Positions 40,594 through 46,782 of a stretch of 64,000 nucleotides of DNA are shown here, in pieces. The notes beneath the pieces were generated by a model. The model ran no database searches, was not told the origin of the DNA, and saw only the letters and a program-made list of their open reading frames with translations. Position 1 is the stretch's first letter; each line of letters starts with the position of its first letter. Both the position numbers and the translations under genes were made by a program. The stretch is taken from positions 23,224 to 87,223 of IMG/VR virus record IMGVR_UViG_3300032103_000260. The stretch is one strand, 5' to 3'. Source of the stretch: a virus.

Positions 40594-40668
40594 TAGCACA
40601 GGGAAATGGATACGAACCACTATCTCCACCTTCCGTTTGGTGGCGCATTTGACTTATGCTACCCCTGT
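40594..40668 (-). tRNA. Degenerate tRNA, Arg(ACG)-like
   Basis: ccacc-AAACGGAA-ggtgg; cloverleaf otherwise recognisable. Confidence 0.45.
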
Positions 40669-40810: not shown

Positions 40811-40848
40811 CAAAAAACCCGATCTTTTTTAGTGATCGGGTTTCCTGA
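40811..40848 (-). terminator. Attenuator terminator upstream of the minus-strand tRNA operon
   Basis: Transcript AAACCCGATC-actaaaaaa-GATCGGGTTT-TTTGTTTT. Confidence 0.85.
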
Positions 40849-40866
40849 TTTTTATTGTTTAATTAC

Positions 40867-40977
40867 TTAAATCAATTCTGTGTCAGAAAACCCAATACGA
40901 TCCCACTCAGCGTCTAAAACCAACGCTTCTGCTACGACTGCCATATTTAATACTAAGTTTTCCATTTGATTTAACAT
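40867..40977 (-). CDS. Leader peptide of the tRNA operon (MLNQMENLVLNMAVVAEALVLDAEWDRIGFSDTELI)
   Basis: 36-aa ORF between the promoter and terminator; its codons match the operon's tRNAs. Confidence 0.8.
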   Translation of the reverse strand: MLNQMENLVLNMAVVAEALVLDAEWDRIGFSDTELI

Positions 40978-41006
40978 TTTTATTTCTGTTTCTCTTAAAT
41001 ACGTCA

Positions 41007-41037
41007 CAAAAGTATAAAAGGTTTAAATACTTGTCAA
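41007..41037 (-). promoter_or_regulatory. Bacteroidota-type sigmaA promoter
   Basis: TTGACA...TACTTTTG (TAnnTTTG box) on the minus strand. Confidence 0.7.
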
Positions 41038-44638: not shown

Positions 44639-45646
44639 ATGAAACCACAATTAAAAGAAGTTGATTACGAAGATTTCTTAGACCCAAATTATCTTCAAGA
44701 CTTGAAAAGAAGAAGTCAGGAGATTGCCAGAGGTCAATCTATGCAGCAAGCTGGTGGTAATGTAATGAGAAATTTACCAAGAGTTAAACAAATTGAAGCT
44801 GGTCATAAAGAAGAATTAGAAAATTTAGCTATTGAATTAGTTAAAGAACAATATCCTATTATTGATAAATTTGATATTGAGATTGATGCACAATTAAGTC
44901 CTACCGTAAGAGTGGATGCTCCTGAAAGAAGAAAACCTAAAACACAACTTCCAGATGAATTTAAAAACCCTGCAAACAAAAGAAGAATAATTAATGCAAT
45001 TACTCAGGGTTCTGCAGTTTCAACTCATGGTGTCTTTCATATGCTTAAAGATAGATTAGATGCAATATACCCTAATTTGGTTAACATGTATGATGAACTA
45101 GGTAAATCAAATGATATTATTTATCATTTGGCTGATAAAAATATGTTAGCTAATATGGCTATTATGGGTAATAGACAAGGAATGGCTGCTGGTTCATCTT
45201 CTTATTCATTTGAAAATGGAAAGTATAAAATCATTGCAAGAGCACAAACATTTCCAGTATTAATTCACGAAATCACCAAAGGATTATTTGAAATCATTTC
45301 AGTTGAAGGATTCGAATTAGATAAAGAAAAAAACACTGAATTGGTTCAATATACTGATACCATCGATAGTGAATTTGATGATATCGTTAATGGTAAAGAT
45401 ATCTATGGTAAAATTAGAGATTATGTTGTTGATAATTTTGAACAATATTTAGATCGTTATCCAGATTTCTTACTATATTTCCTTCAGGAACTATATGAAG
45501 TACCATCAGAAAATAACGAATTTGTTAATTTAATTAATGGTATTTTAACAGGTCAACCAAACAAAAGGGCATTAAAAAATATTGCAGATGATGTTTTCTT
45601 TGATCTTAGAAATGACGATATTGATAGTGCATTTGAAAATAATTAA
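44639..45646 (+). CDS. Hypothetical phage protein
   Basis: 335 aa; KRRIINAITQG, FPVLIHEITKG. Confidence 0.7.
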   Translation: MKPQLKEVDYEDFLDPNYLQDLKRRSQEIARGQSMQQAGGNVMRNLPRVKQIEAGHKEELENLAIELVKEQYPIIDKFDIEIDAQLSPTVRVDAPERRKPKTQLPDEFKNPANKRRIINAITQGSAVSTHGVFHMLKDRLDAIYPNLVNMYDELGKSNDIIYHLADKNMLANMAIMGNRQGMAAGSSSYSFENGKYKIIARAQTFPVLIHEITKGLFEIISVEGFELDKEKNTELVQYTDTIDSEFDDIVNGKDIYGKIRDYVVDNFEQYLDRYPDFLLYFLQELYEVPSENNEFVNLINGILTGQPNKRALKNIADDVFFDLRNDDIDSAFENN

Positions 45647-45665
45647 AAAATTTATAACAATTTGC

Positions 45666-45695
45666 TTGACTTTAACGTATTTAGTTGTAGATTTA
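45666..45695 (+). promoter_or_regulatory. Putative host-type promoter of the plus-strand tRNA operon
   Basis: TTGAC...TAGATTTA (one mismatch to TAnnTTTG). Confidence 0.5.
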
Positions 45696-45711
45696 CATAA
45701 AATTTAAAGAA

Positions 45712-45795
45712 ATGAAAAGAGTTATGTTCATAGTACCGCAACCCCAACATCAGCCACAAAAGCTGTTGCTTGGAGATACTATGTACGTTTCCTAA
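45712..45795 (+). CDS. Leader peptide of the tRNA operon (MKRVMFIVPQPQHQPQKLLLGDTMYVS)
   Basis: 27-aa ORF with a PQPQHQPQ run, before Pro/His/Gln tRNAs. Confidence 0.8.
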   Translation: MKRVMFIVPQPQHQPQKLLLGDTMYVS

Positions 45796-45823
45796 GATAA
45801 TATAAACTTAGGACGTTATATTA

Positions 45824-45860
45824 AGGAAAACCCAAGCACGTAAAAATGCTTGGGTTTTTT
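45824..45860 (+). terminator. Attenuator terminator upstream of the plus-strand tRNA operon
   Basis: AAAACCCAAGCA-cgtaaaaa-TGCTTGGGTTTT-TT. Confidence 0.85.
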
Positions 45861-45868
45861 GATTTTAC

Positions 45869-45962
45869 AGGGTTTGCAGGAGTATGGTTAAACTGGCTGG
45901 TCTTGGAAACCAGTGATGGCACAAAGGCGTTGTCATCCGAGGGTTCGAATCCCTCAACCCTG
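45869..45962 (+). tRNA. Class-II (Ser-like body) tRNA with a TGG (Pro) anticodon
   Basis: ctggt-CT TGG AA-accag, long variable arm, G discriminator, 6-bp acceptor. Confidence 0.6.
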
Positions 45963-46073
45963 AGATGATTAATTACAGATACCTGCACGTGGTAATCATT
46001 GCATGATAATATTAGAAATTAATATTATTAACTAAATTCTGTAAGTTCTTTGAAATTATTAGTATTGAAAATT

Positions 46074-46148
46074 CGAGTAGTAGCGTAGTCAGGTCAACGT
46101 GCTTGCTTTGGGAGCAAGAGATCAAAGGTTCGAATCCTTTCTACTCGA
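46074..46148 (+). tRNA. tRNA-Pro(TGG)
   Basis: cttgc-TT TGG GA-gcaag; C1 start. Confidence 0.9.
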
Positions 46149-46150
46149 CT

Positions 46151-46224
46151 GTGTTTGTAGCTTAATAGTCGAAAGCACATGATTGTGGCTCATGAGATGG
46201 GGGTTCGATTCCCCTCAAACACCA
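46151..46224 (+). tRNA. tRNA-His(GTG)
   Basis: catga-TT GTG GC-tcatg. Confidence 0.85.
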
Positions 46225-46231
46225 ACTATAT

Positions 46232-46305
46232 TACTTTATAGTGTAACGGTTTAGCACGACACCCTTTGAAGGTCGTAGGTTTGGGTTCAAATCCTAATAA
46301 AGCAA
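46232..46305 (+). tRNA. tRNA-Gln(TTG), imperfect stems
   Basis: CT TTG AA loop. Confidence 0.65.
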
Positions 46306-46311
46306 CAATAT

Positions 46312-46383
46312 TGTCGTGTAGTATAATGGTTAGTACTTCAGACTTTGACTCTGAAGGTGATGGTTAGAGTCCATCCACGACAT
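46312..46383 (+). tRNA. tRNA-Gln(TTG)
   Basis: tcaga-CT TTG AC-tctga. Confidence 0.8.
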
Positions 46384-46396
46384 CTTAATTTTATAT

Positions 46397-46469
46397 GGTG
46401 TTTGTGTTGTAATGGTAACATACCATTCTGTGAAAATGGAGTAGACGGATCGTAACCGTCCTTACACCC
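46397..46469 (+). tRNA. tRNA-His(GTG), divergent
   Basis: ccatt-CT GTG AA-aatgg. Confidence 0.6.
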
Positions 46470-46475
46470 TTAATA

Positions 46476-46549
46476 TTCTCAAGTCGTATAATGGCTATTA
46501 TTTCTTACTCTGAATAAGAGGATGTTGGTTCGATTCCAACCTTGAGGAC
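46476..46549 (+). tRNA. tRNA-Gln(CTG)
   Basis: tctta-CT CTG AA-taaga. Confidence 0.8.
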
Positions 46550-46782
46550 TTCTTAAAATATTCAGAAATATTTTTACAACCATCATAAACCTTCAAGAAC
46601 ATTTCTCTACGTTCTTGAATAGATGCAGTGCCTTTCATTATTAAACCAACACCACCCTCTGGTAATTGAGATATTTCACAAAGGTTATCAACATTATGAT
46701 TACAAAACATGTAAAATAAATAACCAGCCAAACCATCTGGCTGAAGTTCTTTTTCAATTCTTTCTATTTTTTCTTGTGTCAT
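46498..46782 (-). CDS. Hypothetical protein (3' end overlaps the last tRNA antisense)
   Basis: 94-aa ORF. Confidence 0.45.
   Translation of the reverse strand: MTQEKIERIEKELQPDGLAGYLFYMFCNHNVDNLCEISQLPEGGVGLIMKGTASIQERREMFLKVYDGCKNISEYFKKSSRLESNQHPLIQSKK

Follow-up and report, generated by a model that had tools for sequence, protein, structure and literature searches.

A phage genome from an aquatic metagenome carries, ahead of a cluster of proline, histidine and glutamine tRNA genes, a short leader gene with a run of the codons that these tRNAs read. The window that we analysed, a stretch of 64,000 nucleotides, covers bases 23224-87223 of one virus record of 178,249 bp (IMGVR_UViG_3300032103_000260; 28.8% G+C, 24 tRNA genes in three clusters), and the unit in question, called here the P/Q/H unit, occupies positions 45666 to 46549. 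We consider it likely that this unit is a ribosome-mediated leader-peptide transcription attenuator that gauges decoding of the very codons its tRNAs read; the phage would then probably make Pro/His/Gln tRNAs only when ribosomes slow on those codons. This attenuator logic, proposed in a first-pass annotation of the DNA, is supported by ten homologous units that have the open reading frame (ORF), the codon run, the sequence TGCTTGG, the terminator and only Pro/His/Gln tRNAs. The parts listed by that annotation (promoter-like site, ORF, codon run, TGCTTGG, CCAAGCA, terminator and seven tRNAs) were all recovered where it had placed them, and the unit is laid out as follows:

45666 to 45695, plus strand: promoter-like site TTGACT-16-TAGATT(TA), with its -35/-10-like core at 45666-45693; it contains the box CGTATTTA, and the arrangement is kept in the homologs
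45712 to 45795, plus strand: leader ORF of 27 codons (ATG at 45712, TAA at 45793-45795), an open frame with an MK start that contains PQPQHQPQ
45724 to 45788, plus strand: long leader hairpin (1:2, the anti-antiterminator), with an outer helix CAUAGUA/UACUAUG and an inner helix of the codon run with GCUGUUGCUUGG
45736 to 45759, plus strand: regulatory codon run CCG CAA CCC CAA CAT CAG CCA CAA (codons 9-16)
45767 to 45773, plus strand: core of region 2, TGCTTGG, the antiterminator strand and a copy of the terminator 3' arm
45790 to 45813, plus strand: spacer hairpin TCCTAAG/CTTAGGA, overlapping the stop codon; its sequence is not conserved
45825 to 45866, plus strand: intrinsic terminator, with a 5' arm that includes CCAAGCA at 45832-45838 (region 3), a 3' arm at 45847-45860 (region 4) and a U tract
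45868 to 45963, plus strand: tRNA with anticodon TGG (Pro), 96 nt, with a long variable arm (ARAGORN; Rfam tRNA model, 50.2 bits)
46074 to 46549, plus strand: six tRNAs, Pro(TGG), His(GTG), Gln(TTG), Gln(TTG), His(GTG) and Gln(CTG) (ARAGORN; Rfam tRNA model)

The promoter-like TTGACT-16-TAGATT extends to TAGATTTA, and the leader ATG stands 16 nt downstream of the -10-like box. The leader is strongly biased towards the amino acids of its own tRNAs: no other [PQH] run is as long as PQPQHQPQ when the entire genome is read in six frames (~356,000 codon positions, 8.6% of codons being P, Q or H), and these three residues fill 8 of 25 leader positions against 2.0 expected (P = 5e-4), while the amino acids of the other clusters are not enriched. 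Both figures exceed what chance would give. The run also includes the rarest Pro codons of the phage (CCG 4.6%, CCC 4.0%) and the minor Gln codon, CAG. Behind it, the seven tRNAs carry the anticodons TGG (twice), GTG (twice), TTG (twice) and CTG, every ARAGORN call being confirmed by the Rfam tRNA model. The first tRNA begins 2 nt past the terminator, leaving no room for a promoter between them, and the 110-nt gap at 45964-46073 holds no plus-strand site among the promoter sites listed, 22 weaker ones lying outside that listing, and may still contain an internal promoter; the matching gap shrinks to 9-49 nt in the related contigs L004 and L003.

Ten distinct units, the window's own included, could be assembled. 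Five, the window unit, L001, L003, L004 and L005, were reached through a 335-aa neighbour protein and hence without leader bias, and five, L006, L007, L018, L020 and L031, through a DNA pattern derived from the leader; since the leader itself was the means of finding half of the homologs and since they are mutually related, the counts given below are not counts of independent events. In the L001, L003, L004 and L005 contigs the P/Q/H unit adjoins or stands near the 335-aa gene, which in the window is encoded just upstream of the unit and whose product has few relatives. The metagenome scan with the leader pattern returned 32 matches, of which L007, L018, L020, L031 and L012 were real (L012 being a duplicate of L001); another match, L026, was discarded for want of a terminator, and 29 matches to the pattern in bacterial and archaeal genomes all proved to be chance hits in unrelated genes.

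Each of the ten units has a TTGAC-type promoter-like site and retains ORF, P/Q/H run, leader hairpin, antiterminator strand and terminator, and the tRNAs behind the ten leaders are Pro, His or Gln without exception (47/47). The frame is open in every unit, at either 27 or 30 codons, and its ATGAAA start is invariant. Synonymous swaps within the run (CCG/CCA/CCT, CCA/CCC/CCG, CAA/CAG) retain the amino acids, and the peptide core VPQPQHQPQ.L.LG is highly conserved, with N- and C-terminal flanks that are free to vary. The most divergent unit, L005, has the run QHPQQHQPQGQ at the same position within another N terminus and tail, a different run in the same place that points to selection on codon identity; a terminator and a TTGACA-17-TACTTT promoter lie upstream of its leader. 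At the level of sequence, then, the parts of the unit, their conservation and covariation and the match of leader to tRNAs are established. In L018 (926) and L020 (1176) the leader ATG lies only ~9 nt past the -10-like TACATTTG box, and the leader mRNA of both would be leaderless or nearly so.

The structural elements are conserved along with the codons. The 176-nt leader folds at -42.6 kcal/mol (z = -4.7 against shuffles), and the long leader hairpin belongs to the minimum-energy fold of all ten units: the 5' half of the ORF, with the codon run, pairs with the 3' half, with TGCTTGG, and the terminator comes next. When the first 78 nt are aligned without gaps, pairing holds for 83.6% of cells, versus 24-45% with slid partners; the outer helix has five pairs in which both sides have changed, while the inner helix is near-invariant and hence uninformative on covariation. 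The terminator of the window has a stem of 13-14 bp (45825-45838 with 45847-45860, -18.2 kcal/mol), and its motif occurs once in the genome. Throughout the ten units the terminators have a GC-rich stem of 13-14 bp built on CCC(C)AAGC and a U tract, and end 2-10 nt before the first tRNA; in L003 an A-T pair of the stem has become T-A through compensatory change, and C-run and G-run lengths covary. As a separate matter, the terminator at 45827-45860 has a 5' A run and so reads as a minus-strand terminator too, which could stop antisense transcription through the tRNA cluster.

Of the alternative pairings described in the first-pass annotation, the complementarity of TGCTTGG to CCAAGCA is supported by the comparison. 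TGCTTGG(G) is the best partner of the terminator 5' arm in 10/10 units and beats shuffled leaders in nine, all but L003 (P <= 0.02); the antiterminator pairing TGCTTGG(G):(C)CCAAGCA amounts to 7-9 bp, and TGCTTGG is invariant, its Leu codon CTT included, in the five units found independently of the leader. The complementarity of region 2 is not merely a by-product of a repeat, because in L006, L020 and L031 region 2 pairs with the 5' arm by Watson-Crick pairs throughout, while the true 3' arm requires a G-U pair. The second proposed contact, GTTTCCT with AGGAAAAC, did not hold up: it is imperfect (the reverse complement is AGGAAAC, so that one A bulges) and is kept only in the closest relatives. 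The competing hairpin TCCTAAG/CTTAGGA does exist at 45790-45813, but it too is conserved only in the closest relatives, and we reject it as a conserved part; the spacer of most homologs has some other small hairpin.

Together, these elements suggest a complete regulatory cycle. Transcription would start from the promoter at 45666-45695, and the 27-codon leader would be translated as the RNA emerges. With the ribosome absent or gone past, the codon run (region 1) would pair with GCUGUUGCUUGG (region 2); terminator 3:4 would then form, and RNA polymerase would halt 2 nt ahead of the first tRNA. Where decoding-competent tRNA-Pro, -His or -Gln is scarce, the ribosome would stall on the eight codons and cover region 1, the freed region 2 (TGCTTGG) would pair with CCAAGCA, the loop-proximal portion of the 5' arm, the terminator could not nucleate, and the polymerase would go on to transcribe the seven Pro/His/Gln tRNA genes. 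The fresh tRNAs would speed leader translation and thereby shut the unit off, giving a closed-loop control of tRNA supply. Translation of the leader, the stall, the kinetic choice between structures and the cause of tRNA depletion are the steps of this cycle that we infer.

The calculated energies are compatible with such a cycle. Across the ten units the terminator lies at -17 to -23 kcal/mol, the leader hairpin at -12 to -21 and the antiterminator, which closes a 44-57-nt loop, at -5 to -13, a hierarchy that resembles that of classical attenuators, where the choice is kinetic. We also simulated the ribosome by masking its footprint (A site -15 to +12) on a transcript cut before the 3' arm, in a purely thermodynamic model. 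With the A site on codons 7-15, the antiterminator is the minimum-energy fold of the nascent transcript in all ten units, and without a ribosome it forms in one of ten.

The P/Q/H unit has a sister in the same window, on the opposite strand:

40811 to 41037, minus strand: sister unit of promoter, 36-codon leader (40977-40867) and terminator (40848-40811)

The sister leader is rich in M, A, V, E, L, D and W and precedes a cluster of Trp, Glu, Val, Ala, Asp, Met and Leu tRNAs. Of its residues, 23/34 belong to the set of its own cluster (P = 1e-4) and 1/34 to P/Q/H, the reverse of what is seen in the P/Q/H leader. A pattern search with the back-translated sister leader gave no match; a homolog was found by DNA similarity in G001, the record behind L001. 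Leader-to-cluster matching extends to three leaders in G001, among them an I/T/R-rich leader ahead of Thr, Arg, Arg and Ile tRNAs. The fullest case is G002, the record behind L006, a complete genome of 362,603 bp with terminal repeats, whose 57 tRNAs lie in four clusters within 80 kb: (i), W, F, T, R, I, S, N, G, L and C; (ii), Y and K; (iii), D, L, A, E, M and V; (iv), P, H and Q. Each cluster follows a promoter-like site, an ORF with an MK start and a terminator, and each leader is enriched in the amino acids of its own cluster only (P = 6e-9, 1.4e-3, 5.8e-4 and 1.1e-3), all 12 cross comparisons giving P > 0.6. In the first of these leaders 27 residues in a row belong to the set of its own cluster, with rare Trp and Cys among them, and the four clusters together span all 20 amino acids.

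The sister unit and the four leader-matched clusters of G002 thus support the proposal, already made in the annotation, that tRNAs are sorted into separately sensed regulons. We lean towards a general form of it, in which a group of large aquatic phages splits its tRNAs into regulons that are each switched on only when ribosomes slow on their own codons. The further claim that the two leaders of the window are independent probably does not hold: both begin with MK, have a GTATTTA(A/G) box at the promoter and follow one overall architecture, and to judge from these common features their design is probably paralogous. The box CGTATTTA(A/G) is found at 45676-45683 (plus strand) and 41003-40996 (minus strand) of the window and in the G002 leaders L069, L072, L006 and L078; in nearly every leader unit it sits inside the promoter spacer or just past the -10-like box, and two of its 8 copies in the 178-kb genome are those at the two leaders. 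It may be a site for a regulator, belong to a phage-specific promoter or mark a transcript 5' end.

Several observations weigh against the attenuator reading or narrow it. The P/Q/H leader has no Shine-Dalgarno sequence, which is equally true of the other genes of this phage, the motif being near-absent genome-wide (AGGA upstream of 2/115 long ORFs). Its coding signature is weak, with 13, 14 and 19 variable columns at codon positions 1, 2 and 3. L001 is the weakest member of the family, its run (PQPKHQLQ) containing two foreign codons, and in L003 the change in the terminator stem is compensated in the 3' arm and not in region 2, leaving one mismatch in the antiterminator. When the simulated ribosome is placed at the stop codon, the antiterminator is still favoured in six of ten units, so that the off state under free translation is not derivable from thermodynamics alone; going by the model, it probably depends on release of the ribosome and local re-forming of the leader hairpin. 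Applied to other leader families, the same masking simulation did not discriminate the states. A search of sequencing runs with this DNA found no RNA run among the holders. Finally, the genome's third tRNA cluster (Tyr, Tyr, Met, Leu) has neither leader nor terminator and instead a plain near-consensus promoter, TTGACA-17-TACATT, at 163347-163375, directly before the first tRNA, meaning that leader control is not universal.

Other explanations can be considered. One retains the attenuator and changes its purpose: the unit would sense amino-acid starvation, through uncharged tRNA, or time tRNA expression during infection, and tRNA abundance would not be the signal. Classical attenuators do answer to charging, and charging and abundance leave the same traces in a sequence. 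Extra tRNA, however, brings no relief from amino-acid starvation, so that the output would be mismatched to the signal, and the one-to-one sorting of tRNAs behind matching leaders fits control of supply; we regard this alternative as unlikely, though worth keeping in mind.

A second possibility, to which we give somewhat less credence, is a constitutively leaky terminator that acts as an insulator or dosage setter behind a small ORF, with a fixed read-through and a peptide that has a job of its own. The high conservation of the peptide core would suit such a peptide, a ribosome at the stop codon gives no clear outcome in the thermodynamic model, and regulation is something that we read out of the sequence. 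Yet this explanation leaves unaccounted for why unrelated leaders (four in G002, three in G001 and two here) mirror their own clusters only, and why the invariant bases are those of the terminator-arm copy, down to an unchanging CTT codon, in a peptide whose two termini vary freely.

In a third scenario the leader RNA would work as a switch without translation, by binding tRNA in the manner of a T-box or by binding a protein, and the ORF would be incidental. The codon run does lie inside a conserved structured hairpin, and the weak coding signature could be cited in the same sense. Against it, Rfam covariance models (T-box; His, Thr, Leu, Trp and similar leaders) had no match at E <= 1 in 45500-46700, nor did any other Rfam cis-regulatory family appear there at that threshold; the ATG AAA and open frame persist in 10/10 units despite the 27- and 30-codon variants; the bases of the L005 run differ and its P/Q/H codons nevertheless stay in frame; and the stall window that releases region 2 in the simulation coincides with the codon run. 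We think such a switch very unlikely. That a CA-rich stretch, a small ORF and a terminator simply met by chance is scarcely credible: small ORFs and hairpins are plentiful in AT-rich genomes and the promoter scan of the window does not rise above its shuffles, but the genome has no second run of this kind, ten units share the arrangement and show covariation, and the leader-to-cluster matrix agrees with an attenuator.

Several tRNA genes in or near these clusters are unusual. The first tRNA behind the P/Q/H leader (window 45868-45963; L003 6259-6355; L004 2150-2246) is 96-97 nt long and combines a type II body with a UGG anticodon; this long-variable-arm tRNA looks functional, since its variable arm and T stem vary among the three copies by compensatory changes. 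Amid the Pro/Gln tRNAs of L003 (6706-6795) and L004 (2335-2422) lies a tRNA-like sequence, ~90 nt long and not called by ARAGORN, that has a long insert and the context of a GTG anticodon; it may be an unusual His tRNA. For the gene that comes first after the sister leader (40596-40668, minus strand), ARAGORN gives a four-base anticodon (acgg) in an 8-nt anticodon loop; it could be a tRNA of the Arg(ACG) type, and in the sister leader Trp-Asp is directly followed by an Arg codon. T-arm-like sequences (GGTTCGAATCC) at ~40740-40720 are not called by ARAGORN. At 98451-98170 (minus strand) of G002, in L078, a 92-aa ORF and two tRNA-like segments, which ARAGORN does not call whole, stand between the terminator of leader C and the first called tRNA of the cluster. 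HNH-type or other small ORFs also lie between tRNAs in L006 (1040-1375), L003 (6903-7484) and L005 (4690-5225, minus strand); such small ORFs inserted in attenuated clusters are likely homing endonucleases and may have their own promoters.

As for the phage itself, a DNA search of GenBank phages gave matches at the tRNA level only and no close relative, a protein search of the same phages with an 838-aa neighbour found two distant uncultured phages and nothing else, and PHROGs and Pfam were uninformative on the neighbouring genes. A flavobacterial host is a lead drawn from two features, the missing Shine-Dalgarno sequences and the TAnnTTTG-like boxes at the leaders; the Bacteroidota-type promoter TTG-N19-TAnnTTTG is not enriched in the window.

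The closest parallels are the leader-peptide attenuators of enterobacteria, such as trpL, hisL, pheL, leuL, thrL and the multivalent ilvGMEDA leader. Like them, the phage unit has a short ORF with regulatory codons, a 1:2 hairpin that overlaps these codons, a 2:3 antiterminator that would exclude the 3:4 terminator and a similar energy hierarchy; its use of rare codons for sensitivity recalls leuL, and the sensing of several amino acids recalls the thr and ilv leaders. There are, however, a number of key differences: (i), the regulated genes are tRNAs and not biosynthetic enzymes, so that the output feeds back on the sensed step; (ii), the system is phage-encoded, its leader lacks a Shine-Dalgarno sequence, and the mRNA would be nearly leaderless in L018 and L020; (iii), the leader stop codon lies 20 nt beyond region 2, so that switching off would probably require the leader hairpin to form again in the wake of the ribosome. 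In Escherichia coli, the leader peptide of pheST controls an aminoacyl-tRNA synthetase operon, and there too leader-peptide attenuation acts on a component of translation that serves the sensed codons; pheST differs in being cellular, in responding to a single amino acid and in having a synthetase as its target, where the phage unit has tRNAs. The T-box (RF00230) likewise couples tRNA status to a choice between terminator and antiterminator ahead of translation-related genes. Its direct ligand is uncharged tRNA, which it recognises by a specifier codon and the T-box motif with no ribosome involved, whereas the phage element is an ORF with eight codons.

To our knowledge, all described ribosome-mediated attenuators regulate genes for amino-acid biosynthesis or synthetases, and the control of tRNA genes is generally attributed to promoters and processing. 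In the full-text literature, with many subscription papers outside its coverage, we found no description of the attenuation of tRNA genes by a codon-matched leader. The novel point is that a unit which, in the features that its sequence shows, has the make-up of a leader-peptide attenuator would be regulating tRNAs.

If the attenuator reading is correct, it would add a new regulatory logic for tRNA genes, in which the sensor, the speed of codon decoding, and the output, the cognate tRNAs, are in direct feedback. The leaders would act as built-in labels of tRNA sets that can aid in assigning odd members, the Pro-anticodon tRNA with the long variable arm being one example, and the units would be compact codon-specific sensors that could be reused as tools. 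The finding would also bear on the open question of why phages carry tRNAs, for which the two current explanations are compensation for codon usage and escape from tRNA-targeting defences. Leader-controlled clusters would amount to a closed-loop tRNA homeostasis run by a virus, an inducible response to the depletion of particular tRNAs, for example upon host shut-off or under tRNA-cleaving defences, the tie to host defences being pure speculation. Phages with such units would monitor and correct translational capacity, one codon family at a time.

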